In this document: in pieces, positions 1,929 to 59,818 of the stretch
Position numbering within the stretch: the stretch's first letter is position 1
Layout of the letters: the number at the start of each line of letters is the position of its first letter
Assembly: GCA_001785985.1 (NCBI GenBank)
Contig: MFVE01000005.1
Coordinates: 233,771-297,770 of the forward strand
From: Candidatus Nomurabacteria bacterium RIFCSPLOWO2_01_FULL_42_17
GTDB lineage: Bacteria > Patescibacteriota > Minisyncoccia > Phycocordibacterales > UBA9973
DNA length: 64,000 nt
Reading direction: 5' to 3'
Program-made: the position numbers and the translations under genes
Notes under the pieces: generated by a model
What the model saw: the letters and a program-made list of their open reading frames with translations, nothing else
What the model was told of the DNA's origin: nothing
Databases searched by the model: none

Positions 1929-2978
1929 CTATTGACTCTCTAAAAATTGAAAGATTTTTTCGTTAGTGAAAACATTTTCGGCGTGCATGCGGGCGCGGTC
2001 GGGGTCGGCTTCTTTGTAGTGTTCTAAGATGTGGGCGACTTCTTTAGCGACCGCCTCTTCGTCGGCCACTATTTTTTCCGCTTTGGCTATTTCATTCAAG
2101 ATTAAGGCCAGCTTGGCTTTCTTTTCCGCTTCAATTCTGAATTCACTACGCAAATTTTCTTTTGTTTTATTTAAATGTTTCAAATAATCTTCAAACTTCA
2201 GTCCCATCTGGGTGATGTCGGACTCCATTCTGTATAAAATTTTATCCAATTCGGCTTCTACCAGGATATTTGGCACATCCATCGTGCTCTCTTCTATGAT
2301 TTTTTCAATGATTTTTAATCTTGTTTTTTCTTTTAGCTGATTTTCCTTTTCCAGCTTGATATTTTCTTTGAGTTTTATTTTAAAATCATTTATATCTTTG
2401 AATGGTCCGAGAGCTTGCACAAATGCATCATCGAATGGAGGAAGTTCTGGTTCCGGATGTGTTTCTCCTTCTTTGTGCTGATGTTCAGTCACATTTACCT
2501 TTGGCGCGCGAGATTTTCTGATATCCATGATGGTATCTTCCAGATCTTTTTCGGTCACAGTTATATTTTTTTCGGCTTCGGTGATGCTCTGATTTACCCC
2601 TTTAGCGATATTTTTGTAATCCGGGAGTTTAATTTCCGGCAAAATCGCTGTCTTGATCTTAAATTCGAGCGGATTTTTGCGAACAAGCTTGGTGATGGCG
2701 ATTTCTGGCCGGCCGATGGCGTCGATCTTTTCTCCTTCTATTATTTTTGGATAATGCTCCGAGAGCGCGAGATTGGCCATCTCTTCCAAGATGGTAATTT
2801 CGGGTATTTTAGACAGCAAAACATTTTCTGGTATTTTACCTTTTCTAAAACCGTCTAATTCTAAATTTTCACCGAGCCTTTTTAAAGCTTTAGTAAAGTA
2901 AGTTTCGAAAATATCAGCCTCTAATTCTCCCTCGACTTCTACCTCGCTTTTCGGTAATTTTTTAACTGTTATTTTCAT
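1929..2978 (-). CDS. tig: Trigger factor (short form, 349 aa)
   Basis: N-terminal ribosome-binding domain motif GFRKGKIP. Position upstream of clpP. A coiled C-terminal chaperone arm. Confidence 0.8.
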   Translation of the reverse strand: MKITVKKLPKSEVEVEGELEADIFETYFTKALKRLGENLELDGFRKGKIPENVLLSKIPEITILEEMANLALSEHYPKIIEGEKIDAIGRPEIAITKLVRKNPLEFKIKTAILPEIKLPDYKNIAKGVNQSITEAEKNITVTEKDLEDTIMDIRKSRAPKVNVTEHQHKEGETHPEPELPPFDDAFVQALGPFKDINDFKIKLKENIKLEKENQLKEKTRLKIIEKIIEESTMDVPNILVEAELDKILYRMESDITQMGLKFEDYLKHLNKTKENLRSEFRIEAEKKAKLALILNEIAKAEKIVADEEAVAKEVAHILEHYKEADPDRARMHAENVFTNEKIFQFLESQ

Positions 2979-5785: not shown

Positions 5786-5960
5786 TCATACGGAGTGATA
5801 ATATCACAATTTATCTTTCAATGCAACTTTTTTGGATGGGTGTGGACAGGGTAGTAGATTTTGACGAAGCCCTTTGGGCGCGCTACGCGCATCGCCAAAA
5901 TTCACTACCCTGTGGATAAGTGAGATTGAGGCACTCTATAATAGAGAGTATAATGTGATT

Positions 5961-7178
5961 ATGAAAATTTCTTCTTTAAAAATTTCTTTTGGACTAGCTT
6001 TTTCTTTTTTTTCTTTCTTATTTTTCTTATTCTACTTATTCTCTTTGCCTTTTATCGCGGGAGCTGGAGATGATGACAATATGGCCGGCTACGCTTGGTC
6101 TTCAAACATCGGCTGGATCAGTTTTAATAACACAAGCGGCGGCGGGAGTGTAGATTATGGTGTGAACAAGAACGCTGATGGCACATTAACCGGCTACGCT
6201 TGGTCTTCAAACATCGGCTGGATAAAATTCGGTGGTCTTTCTGGTTTTCCTTCTGGGGCGCAGACATATGCGCAGAATGCAAATGTGAGTGACGGTGAGC
6301 TAAGAGGATGGGCGAGAGCTTGTGCTGGTATGGATGATGAACCGCCTACACCGCCGAACCAAACAACTCCCAATAATACTTGTAGTGGTGATTCACGTAC
6401 TGATGGTTGGGACGGTTGGATCTCTCTTGCTGGCACGGGCTATGGCGTAACTTTGTCCGGTACTAGTTTCGAGGGTTATGCTTGGGGCTCGGATGTTGTA
6501 GGCTGGGTTGATTTTAGTGGTGTTGTTGTCGGCGCCGGCACTGGTACCTGCACTGATAGCACCCAAAATGGAGACGAAACAGGCATTGATGCCGGCGGTC
6601 GTTGCGACGAGGGTACTTGCTCGGATGGCATCCAGAACGGAAATGAAACTGCGGAAGATAGTGGCGGCCGTTGCGGAGCTGGCACCTGCACTGATGGCAG
6701 TCAAAATGGAGATGAAACAGATATTGACACTGGTGGCCGTTGTGACGAGGGCACTTGCTCGGATGGCATCCAGAACGGAAATGAAACTGCGGAAGATAAC
6801 GGCGGCCGTTGCGGAGTTAGCACTTGCTCGGATGATACCAAGAACGGTAATGAAACTGCAGTTGATTATGGCGGTCGTTGTATTGTAGAAGGCGACTGGA
6901 GTGATTGGAGCCCATGCGTGGGCGGTGATCAAACTCGTACTTGTACGAATCCGCCACCTTCCGGCGGTGGAGCTAATTGTAGCGGACCTTCTTCGCGAGT
7001 TTGCGGTTCTTCCGAAGACGGTACTTGTTCCCAAACTCATTACGACTGTTCTTCTCAAGAGACGAGCATCAATCAGATCAGCAGCCCTACCAAGTGGACA
7101 TGGACTTGTCCTGGCTCAGATGGCGGCGCAGATATAATCTGCACCGAAACCAAACGGCCCGGATTTATAGAGGATTAA
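5961..7178 (+). CDS. Secreted Cys-rich repeat protein with thrombospondin-like motifs (pilus-adjacent putative adhesin)
   Basis: The start is moved to the ATG at 5961 (MKISSLKISFGLAF... signal peptide, preceded by tataat). The protein has three GYAWSSNIGWIxF repeats, five to six tandem ~21-aa units of TC(S/T)DGxQNG(N/D)ETxxDxGGRC, and then DWSDWSPCVGGDQTRTCTNPPP..C.G, which resembles a TSP type-1 repeat. Confidence 0.65.
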   Translation: MKISSLKISFGLAFSFFSFLFFLFYLFSLPFIAGAGDDDNMAGYAWSSNIGWISFNNTSGGGSVDYGVNKNADGTLTGYAWSSNIGWIKFGGLSGFPSGAQTYAQNANVSDGELRGWARACAGMDDEPPTPPNQTTPNNTCSGDSRTDGWDGWISLAGTGYGVTLSGTSFEGYAWGSDVVGWVDFSGVVVGAGTGTCTDSTQNGDETGIDAGGRCDEGTCSDGIQNGNETAEDSGGRCGAGTCTDGSQNGDETDIDTGGRCDEGTCSDGIQNGNETAEDNGGRCGVSTCSDDTKNGNETAVDYGGRCIVEGDWSDWSPCVGGDQTRTCTNPPPSGGGANCSGPSSRVCGSSEDGTCSQTHYDCSSQETSINQISSPTKWTWTCPGSDGGADIICTETKRPGFIED

Positions 7179-17877: not shown

Positions 17878-18384
17878 ATGCCAGAGAAGAAAGGAGAAAA
17901 AATTACTATTTATACTGATGGCGCGGCAAAGGGGAATCCTGGGAGTGCCGGCTGGGGCGCGGTAATTATTTCCCATAATGACAAGTTGAAAGTTGAAAGT
18001 GAAAAGTTGAAAGTGGTAGAGATAGGTGGGAAAGTAGATCATGCAACAAACAACCAAATGGAATTAACCGCGCCAATAGAAGCGCTGAAATATCTAAAGA
18101 ATACAGAGGTTAAACCTATGTATTTAGAGATAATTTCCGACTCTAAATATGTAATACTTGGGATTACCGAATGGATTTTCAACTGGCAGAAAAATAATTG
18201 GCGGAATGCTAATAAAAAACCGGTTTTAAACCGCGAACTCTGGGAAGAATTGTATTCGCTCGTGTCGGCATTGAAACCAAGATGGACCTATGTCAAAGGC
18301 CACAATGAAGACAAATACAACGATCGCGCGGACCTCATCGCCACCAGTTTCGCGGAAGGCGAACCAGTGGAACTTAAAAAATGA
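17878..18384 (+). CDS. rnhA: Ribonuclease HI
   Basis: ITIYTDGAAKGNPGSAGWGAVI, HATNNQMEL and GHNEDKYNDRAD. It has an in-frame GTTGAAAGT-type tandem repeat coding KLKVESEKLKVVE. Confidence 0.85.
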   Translation: MPEKKGEKITIYTDGAAKGNPGSAGWGAVIISHNDKLKVESEKLKVVEIGGKVDHATNNQMELTAPIEALKYLKNTEVKPMYLEIISDSKYVILGITEWIFNWQKNNWRNANKKPVLNRELWEELYSLVSALKPRWTYVKGHNEDKYNDRADLIATSFAEGEPVELKK

Positions 18385-35037: not shown

Positions 35038-38000
35038 ATGGCTGAAAAAGAACCTGCCCGCAATGCTTTCAGCATAGCTGATGCAGGCGGGGAAAAAAGT
35101 AATAAGAGTGATGTAGCGCTTCCAGCCTCCGCTGGTAGCTCTGGCGTGGCGAAGCGCGAGGAAGCAATTTTGCAGTTTTGGAAGAAGAATAAAATTTTCC
35201 AGAAATCTTTAGATAAAAATTCACCAAAGGGGAATTATGTTTTTTATGATGGTCCGCCTTTCGCTACCGGCCTGATACATTATGGACACATTTTAGGGAG
35301 TACTGCCAAAGATGCCGTGGCGCGTTATCAGACGATGAGGGGATATCATGTGCCTAGAAAGTGGGGCTGGGATTGTCATGGACTTCCGATTGAAAACATT
35401 GTTGAAAAAGATTTGAATATTGCCGGACATAAGGAAATAGAAAAGATTGGTATAGATAAATTTGTCGAACATGCGCGGAGTCTTGTCTTGCAATACGATA
35501 AGGAATGGGAAAGCGGGGTAGAGCGCATCGGACGATGGGTGGACTTTCGGGGCGGATACAAAACGATGGACAATACTTTCATCGAATCCGTCTGGTGGGC
35601 GTTTAGCGAGCTAAATAAAAAAGGACTTATCTATGAAGGGGTGAGAGTTCTGGCCTATTGCGCAAGATGCGAGACGCCGATCGCGAATTCCGAAATTGCG
35701 ATGGATAACAGCTATAAAGATATTGCGGATCTTTCTATTTATGTAAAGTTTGAACTGGAAAATGAATCGGGAACATATCTGCTTGCTTGGACCACCACTC
35801 CGTGGACATTGCCGGGGAACACTGCGATTGCGGTAAATAAAAATATTACATATGTAAAAGTGAGAATAGGAAATGATGTGTTGATACTTGCAAAAGACAC
35901 CCTCCAGAATGTATTAAAAGAAAAAGAATATTCTGTGGTAGAGGAAATCAAAGGGAGTGAATTAATAGGCAAAAAATATAAACCGGTATTTCCATACTAT
36001 CGGAATGTTGATCTGCCAAATAAAGAAAACATTTGGAAGGTCTGGTCGGCGGATTTCGTGACGACCGAGAAAGGTACGGGGATCGCGCACGAAGCGCCGG
36101 CTTTCGGCGAGGACGATATGAATCTGGCAAAGCAGTATAGTATTCCCTGGATTATTCACGTGGATGAGACGGGCAGATTTAAGCCCGAAGTTACTGATTT
36201 TTCTGGTTTAAAAGTCAAACCAAAAGATACGCCGGAAGACAAAGATGCGCATATGCGGAGCGATATTGAAATCATTAAATATCTGCAAAAAACCGGAGCA
36301 TATTTTGATAAAGAAAAAATAATCCATTCATATCCGCATTGCATGCGTTGCGATACGCCGATTATTTATTACGCGCTGCCATCCTGGTTCATAAATATTC
36401 AGAAAGTTAAAAAAAATATTTTGAAAAGAGCTGAGAGTATGAATTGGGTTCCTGCACATCTAAAAGAGGGCAGATTTAAAAATATAGTCGAAAATGCGCC
36501 TGATTGGAATGTGTCCAGAAATCGTTACTGGGCTTCGCCTTTACCCGTCTGGAAATGTGAAAAATGCACCGAACAAGTTTTTATTAGTTCGCTCGCAGAT
36601 CTGAAAGTCAAAACAAAAAAGTCCGGTAATAAATATTTTGTAATGCGGCACGGGGAGGCGGAAAATAACGCAAAAAATATTTATTCTTCCAACCAGAAAA
36701 TAAACCACCTGACAGAAAAAGGTCGCACGCAAGTCCTGCAGACGATAGGGCACCTAAAAAGTAAAAAAATCACTAAAATATATTGTTCACCTTTTTTGCG
36801 TACCCGCGAGACGGCGCAAATGGTAGCCGAGAAAATTGGTTTTCCGCTCGAGAAAATTATTTACGATGACAGAATTCGCGAATTAGAATTTGGTGATTTT
36901 TCAGAGCGTCCGGTTTCGGATTACTGGGATTATATGAAAGACAAAATATGGGAATTTGATAAAAAAGTTCCCGGAGGGGAAAGTTTTCAGGATGGCAAGA
37001 ATCGTATTGGAAATTTTCTGTACGATATCGATCAGAAAAATAAAAATGAGTGCATCCTGATCATCTCTCATGGCATTGCAGTCGAGATGGTGCCAGCGGT
37101 GATCGAAGCAGCTGATAAAAAGCGTTCAGCAGAAGTTTTTCATTTGCATATGAAAAATAAAACTGCAGAATTGCATCGTGAACATGAATTTTCTCCTCTT
37201 CCACATAATGCAAATTATGAACTAGATTTTCATAGACCCTATATAGATGAGATAAGACTCGTTTGCAGTTGTAAATCCGAAATGAAGAGAGTGCCCGAAG
37301 TTTTAGATTCTTGGTTGGAGTCTGGTTCCATGCCTTTTGCGCAGAATCACTATCCATTTGAAAATCGAGATTGGCAGAAGAATAATTTTCCGGCTGGTTT
37401 CGTGGCGGAATATATCGCGCAGACCAGAACATGGTTTTATTATACTCATGTGCTCTCGACAATTCTCTTTGATCATGCACCATTTGATAATGTGGTCACC
37501 ACTGGCACGCTGCTCTCGGAAGATGGTCAGAAAATCTCAAAATCTAAAAAGAATTATCCAGACCCATGGATATTTATAGATAAGTATGGAGTGGACGCGC
37601 TTCGTATGTATCTGATGACGAGTCCCCTAATGAAAGGCGAAGATGCAAACTTCTCCGAAAAATTAGTACAGGAAATTTCAAGTAAAATTATCGGAAGACT
37701 TGGTAATGTGGTTTCTTTCTATGAACTCTACCCCGCGCCAGAGCAAGCCAGGTACGAGGCAGGTAGTGATGTTAAAAAGTCTGGAGATATCTTGGATAAA
37801 TGGATTCTGGCGCGATTGAATCAACTGGTGAGTGAAGTTACAAACGGCATGGAAGCCTACGATATGAATGAAGCCTCTCGCCCCATCGAGGGCTTCATTG
37901 AGGATCTTTCTGTGTGGTATCTGCGTCGTTCCAGAGAGCGAATAAAAGATGGGGACAAGGAAGCGAAACAGACTTTATATTTTCTACTAAAAACCGTGGC

Positions 38001-38658
38001 GAAAATCATGGCGCCGTTTGCGCCTTTCACTGCCGATGATATTTGGTTGCGCTTAAAAAATAAAAATGATGCGGAAAGTGTGCATCTGACGCAGTGGCCA
38101 AAAATGTCGAAGCCGGTTTTTGACATTTTTGGCAGTTCGCAAGATAAAATCTTAGGTAGTATGCAAAAAGTTAGAAATATCGTTTCTCTAGGACTGGAGG
38201 CTCGGCAAAAAGCAGGCATAAAAGTGCGACAACCGCTTGCTAGATTAGAAATAAAAGATTTCAATTTGGGAAAAGAATATGTTGAGCTTATAAAAGATGA
38301 ATTGAATGTGAAAGAAGTGAAACAAAATAAAAATCTTGAAAGTGAAGTCAGTCTAGATTTAAATATCACCGAAGAATTAAAGCAAGAGGGAGATTATCGA
38401 GAATTGGTTCGTGCTTTGCAAGATATGCGCAAAAAGATTGGGTTAACCCCGAGTGATGTCGTCGCGCTTACTTTTGAAACAAATGATATGGGTAAAGAAT
38501 TAATTCAAAAGTTTGAACTCGATATAAAGAAAACTGTACTCGTGTCTGAAATAAAATTCAAAGAAAATACTGGTCCTGCTTTCGCCGAAGGCTACAGCGA
38601 GGCGAGGGATGAAATAAAAATAGATGATTTAGTATTTAAGGTAAAAATTGAGAAATAG
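35038..38658 (+). CDS. ileS: Isoleucine--tRNA ligase (type 2) carrying an inserted histidine-phosphatase (PGAM-like) domain
   Basis: PPFATGLIHYGH (HIGH), a CP1 editing domain, WKCEKC ... DFHRPYIDEIRLVCSCK ... KISKSKKN (KMSKS). About 200 extra residues (~aa 521-729) contain FVMRHGEAENN, CSPFLRTRETAQ, ELEFGDF and ILIISHGIAVE. The true start may be the GTG near 35146, because codons 5-18 are a GC-rich repeat. Confidence 0.85.
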   Translation: MAEKEPARNAFSIADAGGEKSNKSDVALPASAGSSGVAKREEAILQFWKKNKIFQKSLDKNSPKGNYVFYDGPPFATGLIHYGHILGSTAKDAVARYQTMRGYHVPRKWGWDCHGLPIENIVEKDLNIAGHKEIEKIGIDKFVEHARSLVLQYDKEWESGVERIGRWVDFRGGYKTMDNTFIESVWWAFSELNKKGLIYEGVRVLAYCARCETPIANSEIAMDNSYKDIADLSIYVKFELENESGTYLLAWTTTPWTLPGNTAIAVNKNITYVKVRIGNDVLILAKDTLQNVLKEKEYSVVEEIKGSELIGKKYKPVFPYYRNVDLPNKENIWKVWSADFVTTEKGTGIAHEAPAFGEDDMNLAKQYSIPWIIHVDETGRFKPEVTDFSGLKVKPKDTPEDKDAHMRSDIEIIKYLQKTGAYFDKEKIIHSYPHCMRCDTPIIYYALPSWFINIQKVKKNILKRAESMNWVPAHLKEGRFKNIVENAPDWNVSRNRYWASPLPVWKCEKCTEQVFISSLADLKVKTKKSGNKYFVMRHGEAENNAKNIYSSNQKINHLTEKGRTQVLQTIGHLKSKKITKIYCSPFLRTRETAQMVAEKIGFPLEKIIYDDRIRELEFGDFSERPVSDYWDYMKDKIWEFDKKVPGGESFQDGKNRIGNFLYDIDQKNKNECILIISHGIAVEMVPAVIEAADKKRSAEVFHLHMKNKTAELHREHEFSPLPHNANYELDFHRPYIDEIRLVCSCKSEMKRVPEVLDSWLESGSMPFAQNHYPFENRDWQKNNFPAGFVAEYIAQTRTWFYYTHVLSTILFDHAPFDNVVTTGTLLSEDGQKISKSKKNYPDPWIFIDKYGVDALRMYLMTSPLMKGEDANFSEKLVQEISSKIIGRLGNVVSFYELYPAPEQARYEAGSDVKKSGDILDKWILARLNQLVSEVTNGMEAYDMNEASRPIEGFIEDLSVWYLRRSRERIKDGDKEAKQTLYFLLKTVAKIMAPFAPFTADDIWLRLKNKNDAESVHLTQWPKMSKPVFDIFGSSQDKILGSMQKVRNIVSLGLEARQKAGIKVRQPLARLEIKDFNLGKEYVELIKDELNVKEVKQNKNLESEVSLDLNITEELKQEGDYRELVRALQDMRKKIGLTPSDVVALTFETNDMGKELIQKFELDIKKTVLVSEIKFKENTGPAFAEGYSEARDEIKIDDLVFKVKIEK
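35053..35092. repeat. GC-rich palindromic repeat, family A, copy 3 (inside the annotated 5' end of ileS)
   Basis: cctgcccgcaatgctttcagcatagctgatgcaggcgggg. Confidence 0.7.
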
Positions 38659-38662
38659 ACTT

Positions 38663-39310
38663 ATGAAAAAAATTTCAGAAATTTATACTGAATATAAGAT
38701 CATGCCGAATTTACAGGAGCATATGCTTCGCGTAGCGGCGGTGGCATCTTTGATTTGTGATAATTTTAATGAGCCAGTCTCAAAAGCAGAACTAGTGACA
38801 GCATGCTTGCTGCATGATATGGGAAATATCATAAAGTCTCAATTGGAATATTTTCCAGAATTTTTAGAGCCAGAAGGACTAGAGTATTGGCAAGGTGTTA
38901 AAAATGAATATATAAATAAATATGGAAGAGATGAACATAAGGCGACAGAACAGATCATGAAAGAGCTTGGTGTATTTCCAAATTTAATTTCAGTTGTAGA
39001 TCAGATTAGATTTTCACTTATTCGTAATATCCGTGACAGCAACGATATGATGATGAAAATAATTATTTATTCCGACAATCGTGCGGATCCGCATGGAATA
39101 GTGTCTTACGAAGAGAGGATGGAAGAGGGGAAAAAGAGATATAAAAATAGAAAAGATGTTTTTGGTATTACAGGACGGGATGAATTGATCCAATGTGGTA
39201 AAGAAATTGAAAAACAAATTTTTTCCAAGTGTAAAATAAAGCCGGAAGATATAAATAACGAAACCGTTGCACCAATAGTTCTAAAATTGAAAAATTTTGT
39301 GGTAAAATAA
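38663..39310 (+). CDS. HD-domain phosphohydrolase
   Basis: The H...HD motif (LLHDMGN) with downstream His/Asp residues. The start is moved to MKKISEIY. It overlaps the end of ileS. Confidence 0.55.
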   Translation: MKKISEIYTEYKIMPNLQEHMLRVAAVASLICDNFNEPVSKAELVTACLLHDMGNIIKSQLEYFPEFLEPEGLEYWQGVKNEYINKYGRDEHKATEQIMKELGVFPNLISVVDQIRFSLIRNIRDSNDMMMKIIIYSDNRADPHGIVSYEERMEEGKKRYKNRKDVFGITGRDELIQCGKEIEKQIFSKCKIKPEDINNETVAPIVLKLKNFVVK

Positions 39311-39323
39311 GATGAAACTCTCT

Positions 39324-39359
39324 ATAGCATATTGGTAACGGCCGTCACCAATATGCTAT
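39324..39359. promoter_or_regulatory. 36-bp near-perfect palindrome ATAGCATATTGGTAACGGCCGTCACCAATATGCTAT
   Basis: 17 of 18 positions pair. It shares ATAGCA...ACGGCCGT...TGCTAT with the palindrome at 39942. Confidence 0.6.
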
Positions 39360-39368
39360 CATGTATTC

Positions 39369-39929
39369 ATGAAGATAATTGATAAAGAATCTAATGCAGG
39401 GAAAATAATTCGTGCGCTAGGTTTTGGGATTGGGATAACAGTGGCTTTATCAAACAGAAGGACTAGTTATAAAATCACTAAATTATTGATCAAAGAAATC
39501 TTTGGATTAAATAAAAGACCGCCTAATATGGCTGGCTACTTTTTAAAACTAAGAAAACAAAAATTGATTGAGATCAAAAAAGACGGGAATCATCATAGAA
39601 TTTTTCTAACAGAAGGTGGCAGAGAGATCTTTTTACGATTCAATTATGAGGAATTAAAAATAAGAAATCCAAAAATCTGGGACCGAAATTTTCGAGTGAT
39701 TGTTTTTGATATTCCAGAAAGAAAAAGAAATGCACGAAATTCTTTAAGAGAAAAGATGAAGGAGTTAGGTTTTATCAAATTTAACGATAGTGTTTGGATT
39801 TATCCTTATCCATGTCAAAAAGAGATTGATTTCATCGCTAATTATTGGGGAATAGGCAAGTATGTGCATTTTATTTTGGCTCGAGATATTACGAATCGCG
39901 ATTTATTAGAAAAGTCCTTCAATTTATAG
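39369..39929 (+). CDS. PaaX-like regulator-type protein (N-terminal wHTH-like region plus C-terminal Cas2-fold-like domain)
   Basis: WDRNFRVIVFDIPERKRNARNSLREKMKELGFIKFNDSVWIYPY resembles the PaaX C-terminal / Cas2-like core. There is no CRISPR array nearby. Confidence 0.4.
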   Translation: MKIIDKESNAGKIIRALGFGIGITVALSNRRTSYKITKLLIKEIFGLNKRPPNMAGYFLKLRKQKLIEIKKDGNHHRIFLTEGGREIFLRFNYEELKIRNPKIWDRNFRVIVFDIPERKRNARNSLREKMKELGFIKFNDSVWIYPYPCQKEIDFIANYWGIGKYVHFILARDITNRDLLEKSFNL

Positions 39930-39941
39930 TTTTTTAGATAG

Positions 39942-39977
39942 ATAGCACAATAGAGACGGCCGTCTCTATTGTGCTAT
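39942..39977. promoter_or_regulatory. 36-bp perfect palindrome ATAGCACAATAGAGACGGCCGTCTCTATTGTGCTAT
   Basis: All 18 pairs complementary. It lies 12 nt after the stop of the 39369 gene. Confidence 0.6.
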
Positions 39978-40040
39978 TACGTTATTATATATTGTCTATT
40001 TCTTTTTAATTTTTTATTTTGACTATGATATAATCAAGGA

Positions 40041-40682
40041 ATGAAGATTAAAAAACTCGGGCACTGTTGTTTGGTGATAGAGATAGACGGGAAAAGGATT
40101 ATGACCGATCCGAGTTTTCTGGATTACGGAGGAGAGTCTACGCTTGAGAGAAATATTTCTGCAATCTTAATTACACATGAACATGCGGATCATTTACATA
40201 TTGAAACTCTTAAACAAATTTTGCAATATAATCAAAATGCAATTGTGATTACTAATACCTCTGTGGGTAAATTGCTTAATGAGGCTGGAATCAAATATGT
40301 AAAAGTGGAAGACGGTGAAAGTTATGATTTGAACGGTGTTATACTTGCGGGCTTTGGTGATATGCACGCTCAAATATATGAAGACTACGGTCAAGTTCAA
40401 AACACTGGCTATATGATAAATGCACTATGCTATCCTGGGGATTCTTTTAACTTGCCTAATGCGCGCGTGGATATTTTGGCCTTGCCGGTCTTGGGTCCTT
40501 GGATGAAAATGAAAGATGCTATTGATTATGCAAAGGAACTTAAGCCCAGGGTTTGTTTCCCTGTGCATGATGCGCCTCTGAAGCCTTTTGCTACTTTTAT
40601 ATATAAAATACCAGAGAATTTTCTATCAAAAGTTGGAATTGAATTTAAGAAACTGGAATTAGGTAAAGAAGAAGAATTATAA
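40041..40682 (+). CDS. MBL-fold metallo-hydrolase
   Basis: ILITHEHADHL (HxHxDH), plus downstream His and Asp residues. 213 aa. Confidence 0.7.
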   Translation: MKIKKLGHCCLVIEIDGKRIMTDPSFLDYGGESTLERNISAILITHEHADHLHIETLKQILQYNQNAIVITNTSVGKLLNEAGIKYVKVEDGESYDLNGVILAGFGDMHAQIYEDYGQVQNTGYMINALCYPGDSFNLPNARVDILALPVLGPWMKMKDAIDYAKELKPRVCFPVHDAPLKPFATFIYKIPENFLSKVGIEFKKLELGKEEEL

Positions 40683-48493: not shown

Positions 48494-48534
48494 ATAGCAA
48501 TACATAGGTTTAACCTATGTATTGCTTAAACTAT

Positions 48535-49113
48535 ATGTATAAGAATATTAAAATAATTGCGGAAGTAAAGACGCAATCGCCCTTTGGTTATAAATCAGAT
48601 AATACATGGAATGAATTATTTAAAGTTGCTAATAAAATAGGAGATATTATTTCTATTCATACAGATGATAGATGGGGTGGCTCGTTTGATTTAATTAAAA
48701 AAGCTAGATCATTGACTAAAAAGCCAATTTTAGCCAAAGGAATACACGAGAGGGATGAAGATATACAAAAAGCAATTGATGCTGGGGCAGATTGGGTGTT
48801 GGTCGTAGGTAGAATTCCTAGAGTTCATCTAGAAAAATGTTTGATTGAACCTTTAACCCTTCAGGAACTTAAAAATATTCCAGAAAGTTACAAAGCGGTA
48901 TGGAATAGTCGTGATTTATTGAATGGAAAATTTAAAAAAGAAAGTTTTGAAGAAGCCAGGGGTCTATTTAAAGGTTGGCTTTGCCAAGCAAGCAATATCA
49001 AGACAGTGGATGATATTAAAAAGGGAGCTGAAGCTGTTCTTGTCGGTACGTATTTATTGGATTTTGAAAAATCTGTGAGTTATACACAGATAAACTCTAA
49101 ATACATAGGTTAA
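48535..49113 (+). CDS. Indole-3-glycerol-phosphate synthase-like (TrpC-like, divergent and short) TIM-barrel protein
   Basis: IIAEVKTQSPFGY, ISIHTDDRWGGSFDLIKKAR and PILAKGI...AIDAGADWVLV resemble IGPS motifs (IIAE.K.ASPS.G, ISVLTD...F.GS). No other trp genes are in the window. The start is moved to MYKNIKII. Confidence 0.45.
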   Translation: MYKNIKIIAEVKTQSPFGYKSDNTWNELFKVANKIGDIISIHTDDRWGGSFDLIKKARSLTKKPILAKGIHERDEDIQKAIDAGADWVLVVGRIPRVHLEKCLIEPLTLQELKNIPESYKAVWNSRDLLNGKFKKESFEEARGLFKGWLCQASNIKTVDDIKKGAEAVLVGTYLLDFEKSVSYTQINSKYIG

Positions 49114-49141
49114 ACCTATGTATTTATGTTATCATATACTT

Positions 49142-49816
49142 ATGAATAGAAAAGTGCCATTTGTGGAAGGGGAATATTATCATGTATACAATCGCGGGGT
49201 TGATAAACGGGTTATTTTTCAAGATGTTGTAGATTATAAAAGATTAATTTTGCTATTGAAAATATTAAATACTACACAAAATATAATTGTGCGCGATCTT
49301 TTTAAAAATAAAACTTATGAAGAAATTATTTCTGAAAAAATAGCTGATCCTATTGTGGCAATAGGTGCGTATTGCTTAATGCCGAATCATTTTCATATAT
49401 TAATTACCCCATTGGTTGAAAAGGGTGTAGAAAAATATATGCAAAAAATACAAACAGCCTATACAATGTATTTTAATAATAAAAATGAAAGATCTGGGGC
49501 TTTATTGCAGGGGACATTTAAGTCTCAACATTTAGATACTGATGAATATTTGAAATATATTTATTCATACATACATTTAAACCCAGCAAAATTGAAAGAT
49601 AAAGACTGGAAGGAAAAAGGGCCCAGAGATTTTCAATCTTTGAAAGAATTTGTGTTGAGCTATAAATATTCAAGTATAGGGGAGTATTTAAAAGATGATT
49701 TCGTTATTATAAATAATACTCCTTTCCCGACTTACATGGAAGATTATAAATCCAAAGAGGAATATTTTAAGATGATGGTCGATGATTGGCTTAGATACCA
49801 AAATACAGAGGTTTAA
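49142..49816 (+). CDS. REP-associated tyrosine transposase (RAYT) / IS200-like Y1 HUH transposase
   Basis: GEYYHVYNRG, the HuH motif MPNHFHILI and the catalytic Tyr motif YIYSYIHLNPA. The start is moved to MNRKVPF. Confidence 0.8.
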   Translation: MNRKVPFVEGEYYHVYNRGVDKRVIFQDVVDYKRLILLLKILNTTQNIIVRDLFKNKTYEEIISEKIADPIVAIGAYCLMPNHFHILITPLVEKGVEKYMQKIQTAYTMYFNNKNERSGALLQGTFKSQHLDTDEYLKYIYSYIHLNPAKLKDKDWKEKGPRDFQSLKEFVLSYKYSSIGEYLKDDFVIINNTPFPTYMEDYKSKEEYFKMMVDDWLRYQNTEV

Positions 49817-49833
49817 CCTATGTATTTCAATTT

Positions 49834-59701: not shown

Positions 59702-59744
59702 GGTCACTCTTGTCTCGTAGTTGCTTGATAGAATCAACAAAAAA

Positions 59745-59771
59745 CCACCCCAATAAAAGGGGTGGTTTTTT
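59745..59771 (+). terminator. Rho-independent terminator (ccacccc-aataaaa-ggggtgg followed by ttttttg)
   Basis: Seen directly, about 40 nt after the stop at 59701. Confidence 0.75.
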
Positions 59772-59818
59772 GTTGTGTATTTGAATTTATGATTTAAATG
59801 ATGTAATATGATGCTTAT

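Follow-up and report, generated by a model that had tools for sequence, protein, structure and literature searches.

A truncated PaaX-like gene between two long palindromes in a Nomurabacteria genome: candidate operators of a self-regulated gene

Why a short bacterial gene should lie between two nearly identical 36-bp palindromes is the question raised by a stretch of 64,000 nucleotides from Candidatus Nomurabacteria bacterium RIFCSPLOWO2_01_FULL_42_17 (contig MFVE01000005.1, positions 233,771 to 297,770), which was analysed at its full length and is referred to here as the window. The gene encodes a PaaX-like protein without the C-terminal domain of PaaX, which we name mini-PaaX, and the palindromes upstream and downstream of it are called pal1 and pal2 (Table 1). 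A first-pass annotation of the window had offered two explanations for the pair, namely operators for the enclosed regulator or the termini of a tiny mobile cassette. Comparative data on the conservation of position, the overlap with a promoter and the clade-linked variants of the sites favour the former, and we propose, with a probability of roughly 0.6, that pal1 and pal2 are self-flanking operators of an autoregulated mini-PaaX gene. It is likely that the palindromes also have a hairpin or terminator role.

When re-derived from the sequence, the positions and the pairing of both palindromes agree with the first-pass annotation, as does the gap of 12 nt between the stop codon and pal2, while the gap between pal1 and the ATG at 39369 is 9 nt and not the 10 nt given there. 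Relative to the start codon pal1 extends from -45 to -10 and is centred at -27, its sole mismatch is A14.C23, and the centres of the two palindromes are 618 bp apart. A search of the window for ATAGCA-N8-ACGGCCGT-N8-TGCTAT, allowing three mismatches or fewer, returned two matches, which are pal1 and pal2, and 100 dinucleotide-preserving shuffles returned none. The two palindromes differ at 9/36 positions, five in the left arm and four in the right, and these differences comprise four fully compensated pairs (7/30, 9/28, 11/26 and 13/24) and one that is uncompensated (14/23). The compensatory changes previously claimed for all 8 internal positions per arm are thus real in kind, but not in that extent. 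Both palindromes fold much more strongly than shuffled sequences (-21 to -26.5 kcal/mol, z = -5.3 to -8.4). A search of Rfam with E up to 1 gave two sub-threshold chance matches only, and a known RNA family was rejected on that basis.

The enclosed protein had been described as a winged-helix-like N-terminus joined to a PaaX- or Cas2-like fold, a description that Pfam, Foldseek and NCBIfam bear out for the fold and that is probably right for the N-terminus. The Pfam family PF20803 (PaaX_M, the central Cas2-like domain of PaaX) matches residues 103-175 with 73.1 bits against a cut-off of 24 (E=1.9e-20), whereas PaaX_C was not found by Pfam and the protein ends at residue 186, directly past the Cas2-like domain. 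The NCBIfam equivalog model for PaaX (TIGR02277) scores 24.6 bits, below its cut-off of 264.55, in a weak alignment of residues 60-172, which runs from the recognition helix onward. Judged from its sequence the protein is therefore PaaX-like in architecture and yet fails the PaaX equivalog, hence the name mini-PaaX. In the AlphaFold2 (AF2) model the C-terminal domain alone is confident, with a predicted local distance difference test score (pLDDT) of 75-91, and the N-terminus, at low pLDDT, shows helices at 10-28, 34-45 and 54-63 followed by a β-hairpin at 67-80; Pfam gives this part a weak match to the DUF6293_C winged helix only (E=0.0023). The top Foldseek matches of the model are the Cas2 proteins SSO8090/SSO1404, several other Cas2 proteins, E. 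coli PaaX (8a39) and VapD, and these came from the fold search alone, no sequence-level relatives having been found in the PDB. The first strand of the Cas2-like domain ends in an invariant aspartate (D114, in the motif VFDIPE), and N139, S141 and W143 are also invariant. Cas2 models themselves remain below their cut-offs (13.7 against 23.8 bits in Pfam, 19.1 against 24.5 bits in NCBIfam), and neither database gave a match to Y1_Tnp. There are no paa genes nearby, the neighbours encoding IleRS, an HD hydrolase, an MBL-fold hydrolase and RecO; neither a CRISPR-like repeat array nor a second mini-PaaX paralogue was found in the window, and the genes examined gave no sign of cas1, although no dedicated search for it was made.

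A homology search returned 179 proteins, and the 120 of these that are listed with identity and length derive from metagenome-assembled genomes of Candidatus Nomurabacteria/Paceibacterota; among them identity is 65-90% and nearly all are exactly 186 aa long. Scanning one genome per GTDB species yielded 34 loci, which fall into two paralogue groups, A and B, with both present in 5 genomes. In group A, to which the window belongs, the order is IleRS, [HD], the gene, [MBL], RecO and a 653-aa protein, where HD and MBL may be present, absent or moved; in the two annotated loci of group B a DsbA-like gene precedes mini-PaaX, which is followed by convergent rpoD and dnaG. The syntenic slot is constant in 17 group-A loci and a second slot is fixed in the group-B loci examined, even as protein identity falls to 53-65%. 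Because of this synteny we regard the gene as long settled in the chromosome, with an old duplication behind it, and not as a roaming cassette. Neither motif nor gene was found in the viral contigs searched, and an origin in a phage or mobile element was rejected for that reason.

The placement of the sites is as stable as that of the gene. An upstream dyad is present in all 33 of the loci used for this comparison, with its centre at -26 to -30 from the start codon in 28 and at -37 to -43 in 5, and a downstream dyad, centred 26-65 nt past the stop codon, is recognisable in about 30 of 32. The consensus dyad of the homologous loci is TTACCATAATAGACACGG followed by CCGTGTCTATTATGGTAA. The distance between the upstream and downstream sites ranges from 614 to 647 bp and helical phasing is absent. 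With relaxed criteria, no further copies were found in ~205 kb of the loci and flanks of relatives, nor elsewhere in the window. Both sites are also retained around a relative of only ~30-40% identity. A 165-aa homologue (L036) has a differently spelled dyad, CACCATGTTTAGACGG followed by CCGTCTGAATATGGT, centred at about -27, with another copy past its stop codon, and a 200-aa homologue (L063) has two identical 40-bp copies, one on either side. In another locus (L044) the upstream copy is kept at the start codon although the upstream gene is divergent. That the linkage to the gene survives such changes of context, in groups A and B and in L036 and L063, supports the operator reading. That the two copies have a set orientation to each other, as terminal inverted repeats do, was hinted at by loci L010, L025 and L033 but was rejected across the set (9 inverted, 13 direct, 10 ties, p=0.66).

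Moreover, the sites vary together with the protein. The upstream and downstream sites of the same locus differ at 8.7/36 positions on average, compared with 14.5 between loci, and 0/20000 permutations did as well; in the genomes with two paralogues each gene retains its own site type in 4/5. Proteins with the recognition helix N-Y-S-R-Y-F-S-K-L-R-K-Q have the outer motif TACCA/TGGTA, whereas the clade of the window (N-M-A-G-Y-F-L-K-L-R-K-Q) has TAGCA, TAACA or TAGTA. In the loci of the most divergent proteins the core is altered in both copies, to CACGTG in L031 and to CCTAGG in L032, and the core variants GCGGCCGC or GCTACCGC occur in other loci. In addition, the ACGGCCGT and ATAAT blocks are conserved across genomes and contexts beyond what pairing needs. 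Co-variation of site and clade is what a co-evolving pair of regulator and operator would predict, although shared descent and gene conversion between the copies could contribute to it.

The upstream site also overlaps a promoter-like element. When upstream regions are aligned at the start codon, most homologous loci show TAnnAT at -12 to -7 with TG at -15/-14, and in the window the corresponding extended -10-like element crosses the outer boundary of the right arm of pal1, so that this arm contributes the TG and the TA of TGnTAnnAT (-15 to -7). The distal arm holds a near-invariant TAGACA at -36 to -31, which agrees with TTGACA at 5/6 positions and has a spacer of 18 bp, and the corresponding positions of the remaining three arms are variable. 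The 9 nt ahead of the ATG show no obvious resemblance to a Shine-Dalgarno sequence. Of the genes in the window, 26 are preceded by a gap of 35 nt or more; nine of these have TAnnnT beginning at -12, against zero to three at any other offset, and seven of the 26, including the MBL-fold gene, have TGnTAnnnT at that position, ending 6 nt before the start codon, which makes this leaderless geometry the most frequent promoter-like pattern of the window. This pattern suggests that leaderless mRNAs are common and may be the main mode of expression in this genome, and the simplest reading is that pal1 would span the whole core promoter of a leaderless or near-leaderless mini-PaaX gene. A classical -35/-10 scan of the region gave hits that were not above shuffles, the extended -10 geometry being derived from the alignment. 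An alternative extended -10-like motif lies within the end of the HD gene (Table 1), and if this were the promoter then pal1 would be located in the 5' leader instead.

Table 1. Coordinates of the features discussed, in positions of the window
Feature	Position	Strand	Description
pal1 (upstream palindrome)	39324-39359	.	ATAGCATATTGGTAACGG followed by CCGTCACCAATATGCTAT, 17/18 self-complementary
Extended -10-like element	39354..39362	+	TGCTATCAT; TG at -15/-14, hexamer TATCAT at -12..-7
mini-PaaX gene	39369..39929	+	186 aa; probable winged-helix N-terminus and Cas2-like PaaX_M, no PaaX C-terminal domain
pal2 (downstream palindrome)	39942-39977	.	ATAGCACAATAGAGACGG followed by CCGTCTCTATTGTGCTAT, 18/18 paired
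Alternative extended -10-like motif	39300-39308		TGGTAAAAT
Extended -10-like motif of MBL-fold gene	40026-40034		TGATATAAT; gene starts at 40041
IleRS gene	35038-38658		1206 aa
Overlap of HD-domain and IleRS genes	38648-38658		11 nt
Trigger-factor gene	1929-2978		
GC-stem/T-tract terminator	59732-59778		one example of the ordinary type
IS200-like Y1 transposase gene	49118-49816		232 aa
Second palindrome family	18100-18124, 48499-48523, 49100-49124, 49802-49826		AATACATAGGTT[t/a]AACCTATGTATT
Tandem repeat	6541-6881		69/138-bp, inside open reading frame 5874-7178

According to the model that we favour, mini-PaaX would be a truncated regulator of the PaaX family without the ligand-binding C-terminal domain, and a dimer of it, with dimerisation probably mediated by the Cas2-like domain, would bind the dyads. 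At pal1 the dimer would exclude RNA polymerase, giving negative autoregulation, and would also stop read-through from the upstream IleRS/HD genes. The second palindrome, pal2, would be an auxiliary operator acting by cooperative binding, by looping or as a roadblock, and its transcribed hairpin may help to end the transcript. Such a layer of transcript-ending hairpins would account both for pal2 and for the solo copies at gene ends that are described below. Binding of the sites by the protein, repression and the role of the downstream copy are what we infer from the comparative evidence.

A number of observations weigh against this model, and the first group of them comes from copies of the dyad away from the gene. 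A scan of metagenomes with the strict motif AATAGNNACGGCCGTNNCTATT gave 67 sites, of which ~13 are probably chance matches, and only 11 of the 37 unique copies (~30%) adjoin a PaaX_M gene, so that about two thirds (26/37) do not. These 26 solo copies comprise 8 in convergent, 7 in tandem, 0 in divergent and 11 in unclassifiable contexts; the tandem copies are usually 3-30 nt past the upstream stop codon and solo copies overall are 0-30 nt past stops, with neighbours that include pyrB/trigger factor, rplL, purD/purE, purA, a HepT toxin and a MazEF pair. None of the solo copies has the promoter geometry with the dyad at -27 from a start codon, and their placement past stops suits terminators better than operators. 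The notion that they are promoters of small leaderless open reading frames that had been missed was rejected, since all of them lack a start codon that would place TAnnnT and the dyad in the -27 arrangement. However, the strict pattern is matched by only ~4/65 of the gene-linked sites of the GTDB loci, which implies that gene-linked sites are heavily under-sampled in the metagenome scan. There are only one or two PaaX_M genes per genome, and in the ~270 kb examined without bias there is no solo copy. The trigger-factor gene of the window, an orthologue of a gene with a solo site elsewhere, has none, which we attribute to its neighbour being co-directional. The first-pass annotation held that palindromes occurring many times in the genome, unlinked to the gene, would mark them as a generic repetitive extragenic palindrome (REP); metagenomes do hold copies without any link to the gene, located at the 3' ends of unrelated genes, but they are rare, and there are none in the window or in the ~205 kb of relatives. 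With ~30% of unique copies at a PaaX_M gene, they are not a generic REP.

In one metagenome contig (Ga0209541_10007481, locus L035) a MazE/MazF pair, inserted after rplL, occupies positions 1487-2265 between two identical 37-bp copies of the family, AATACCACAATAGCAACGGCCGTTGCTATTGTGGTAT, and this is the sole set of genes other than PaaX found between twin copies.

The second group of contrary observations concerns symmetry. The first-pass annotation had proposed selection on structure, and in the family as a whole selection on symmetry is borne out by covariation of the arms at variable positions. In 77 unique sites, 87% of cells are paired compared with 73% in shuffles and the covariation score is 0.375 compared with 0.143, a value reached by 0/500 shuffles, numbers that are inflated because the sites were preselected for at least 13/18 symmetric positions and are phylogenetically related. 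Double-sided changes occur in 14/16 pairs. The variants CAC/GTG and CAT/ATG often differ between the upstream and downstream sites of a single locus and yet each site is symmetric, and in the closest relative of the window (L034, 95% identity over the 42 C-terminal residues held by its short contig) the downstream palindrome has about six differences per arm from pal2 and is still 17/18 paired. Nothing in the recognition of both sites by a single protein calls for such covariation within a site. It points to selection for a hairpin or cruciform, or else to quasipalindrome template switching during replication. Quasipalindrome template switching is a known mutational mechanism that keeps the arms matched. 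Also to be set against the operator reading are the tails that follow the downstream copies, which are richer in T in the sense than in the antisense direction (7.2 against 5.3 T per 15 nt, p=0.0005), and the fact that pal2 passes a terminator scan, albeit a simple and permissive one. Finally, the N-terminal domain is poorly modelled, as pLDDT stays under 50 for a large part of residues 1-100, and a more distant PaaX_M subfamily of 168-198 aa (L038, L060 and L072) has the family palindrome downstream only. The promoter region of these subfamily genes, in L072 and L038/L060, holds a different dyad, AAGTTTTTCGTGG followed by TCACGAAAAACTT.

The rival that survives best would make the palindromes mainly transcribed hairpins, that is, sequence-conserved bidirectional terminators or insulators that isolate the gene, while the protein binds something else or has no particular target here; we consider this unlikely. 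It can draw on the position of the solo copies past stops, often convergent and in 0/15 cases divergent, on the symmetric covariation and the folding energies of the hairpins, and on the terminator scan and T-rich sense tails of the downstream copies. It may also appeal to an excess of G.T over A.C mismatches on the sense strand of upstream copies (52:30), a bias which is weak and is not independent across related genomes. A plain terminator, however, needs no conserved sequence, and yet ACGGCCGT and ATAAT are kept. Non-wobble cases make up over half of the mismatches (88/170 in upstream and 73/133 in downstream copies), and upstream copies average ~5 unpaired positions of 16; a strict RNA-hairpin reading was rejected given this and the weakness of the G.T bias. 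T-runs of at least 4 occur in about a third of the downstream tails only, and pal1 has no T-rich terminator-like tail. Furthermore, it is the start of the downstream gene, and not the stop of the upstream gene, that fixes the place of the upstream copy, even in L044, the link of ~30% of unique copies to a gene present only once or twice per genome is left to be accounted for, and ordinary terminators with a GC-rich stem and T-tract are also found in the window (Table 1).

A wider proposal, which is speculative and which we think rather improbable, is that mini-PaaX and its 36-40-bp dyads form a genome-wide system, in which the protein either is a sequence-specific roadblock or terminator factor at selected 3' ends or maintains and spreads the sites in the manner of REPs and REP-associated tyrosine transposases (RAYTs). 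Convergent gene pairs would be especially bound, with an action like that of mTERF in mitochondria, the gene itself would be both bracketed and throttled by its two sites, and occasional cassettes between identical copies, such as the MazEF pair of L035, would be by-products of recombination at the sites. In terms of the operator model, the solo copies could be either protein-bound roadblocks or insulators, or independent terminator-like elements of common origin.

It is more doubtful still that the Cas2-like domain binds or cuts an RNA hairpin or DNA cruciform, either in 3'-end processing or in a REP/RAYT-like role, the latter as a domesticated nuclease whose gene lies between two copies of the element that it maintains. 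The Cas2/VapD fold with its invariant D114 (in FDIPE), N139, S141 and W143 would be in keeping with such an activity, a gene between its own palindromes with dispersed solo copies at 3' ends reproduces the REP/RAYT layout, the MazEF pair of L035 lies between identical copies, and a true RAYT-like gene with REP-like palindromes of its own is present in the same window. Yet the copy number is very low, with none beyond the pair at the gene in ~270 kb, the invariant motifs belong to the profile of PaaX_M, a repressor family, and the Cas2 models stay under their cut-offs. Many copies would also make poor hairpins, and the flanking copies lack a consistent inverted orientation. The remaining alternative, in which the gene is carried by a small mobile cassette with the palindromes as its ends or its sites of recombination, has in its favour two near-identical repeats around a single gene and the identical pairs in L063 and around MazEF in L035, but we judge it very improbable and do not follow the first-pass annotation here, given the fixed syntenic slots of both groups at protein identities down to 53-65%, an upstream copy that is built into the promoter, the lack of an adjacent recombinase and the absence from viral contigs, empty sites not having been searched for.

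Several other features of the window were observed. The RAYT-like gene, 9 kb from the mini-PaaX gene, encodes the IS200-like Y1 transposase of Table 1 (Pfam Y1_Tnp, 1.2e-8), which scores 41.5 bits against the NCBIfam model for REP-associated tyrosine transposases (REP_Tyr_transpos), under the cut-off of 80. Two copies of the second palindrome family flank this gene, a third precedes the neighbouring IGPS-like gene and the fourth is 31 kb away, and from its sequence the whole looks like a small RAYT/REP system in a genome of the candidate phyla radiation (CPR). Upstream of mini-PaaX, the HD-domain gene is called from a TTG that lies within the IleRS gene, whose final 11 nt both genes share, and co-transcription or translational coupling of the pair is therefore probable. 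IleRS itself contains a complete His_Phos_1 domain (7.7e-30, residues 534-693) within its class-I catalytic domain. The tandem repeat (2-4 copies, 71-86% matches) lies within an open reading frame and therefore corresponds to a repetitive segment of protein.

Gene regulation in CPR/Patescibacteria is almost unexplored, and mini-PaaX offers a conserved regulator with a defined candidate DNA site, the pair occurring once or twice in a Nomurabacteria genome. A full-text search of the literature found no publication linking PaaX-like proteins with CPR/Patescibacteria or describing this module, and none that combines the terms 'PaaX' and 'Cas2-like'. The sequence of this genome also speaks for promoters of a leaderless, extended -10 type. 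The pair may serve as an anchor for reading metatranscriptomes. If the solo copies at gene ends are bound by the same protein, this would point to protein-dependent insulation of transcription in very small genomes.

Among known systems the closest comparison is with PaaX, the repressor of phenylacetate catabolism in E. coli and Pseudomonas. In E. coli its operator is TGATTC-N27-GAATCA, 39 bp in length, and steric hindrance is the means by which PaaX represses Px, its own promoter (PMC9493321). Both proteins have a Cas2-like central domain, which follows a winged-helix N-terminus in PaaX and a probable one in mini-PaaX, and in both cases a long dyad (~36-40 bp here) lies over the promoter of the regulator itself, autorepression being a prediction in the case of mini-PaaX. 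They differ in that mini-PaaX is without the C-terminal domain to which binding of the inducer, phenylacetyl-CoA, is attributed, is far below the equivalog threshold (24.6 against 264.55 bits) and has no paa genes nearby. Its dyad is also conserved through the centre (ACGGCCGT) and not just in the outer hexamers, and there is a second site past the gene, with solo copies at the 3' ends of other genes. Cas2 and VapD share with mini-PaaX the ferredoxin-like β-α-β-β-α-β domain, and the strand-1 motif of mini-PaaX that ends in an aspartate (VFDIPE) is Cas2-like, but in mini-PaaX this domain is fused to a putative DNA-binding domain and is below the Cas2 cut-offs.

In its layout the locus resembles a REP/RAYT system, as a single-copy, vertically inherited gene lies between palindromes and solo palindromes are found at 3' ends and convergent junctions; however, mini-PaaX is not an HUH/Y1 transposase, its upstream palindrome is part of a promoter, and there are about one or a few solo sites per genome where REPs number tens to hundreds. 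An intrinsic bidirectional terminator likewise forms a strong hairpin just past stops, often between convergent genes, and some copies have T-rich tails, but the AT-rich stems of the mini-PaaX dyads are 16-18 bp long and conserved in sequence, many are without a T-tract and the position of the upstream copy is set by a start codon. The lac O1/O2 and gal OE/OI pairs, in which an operator at the promoter has a partner some hundreds of bp further downstream (618 bp between centres here), offer a further parallel, with the difference that the second mini-PaaX site is beyond the stop codon and not inside the operon, at a spacing of 614-647 bp that is unphased, and that looping between the two mini-PaaX sites is hypothetical.

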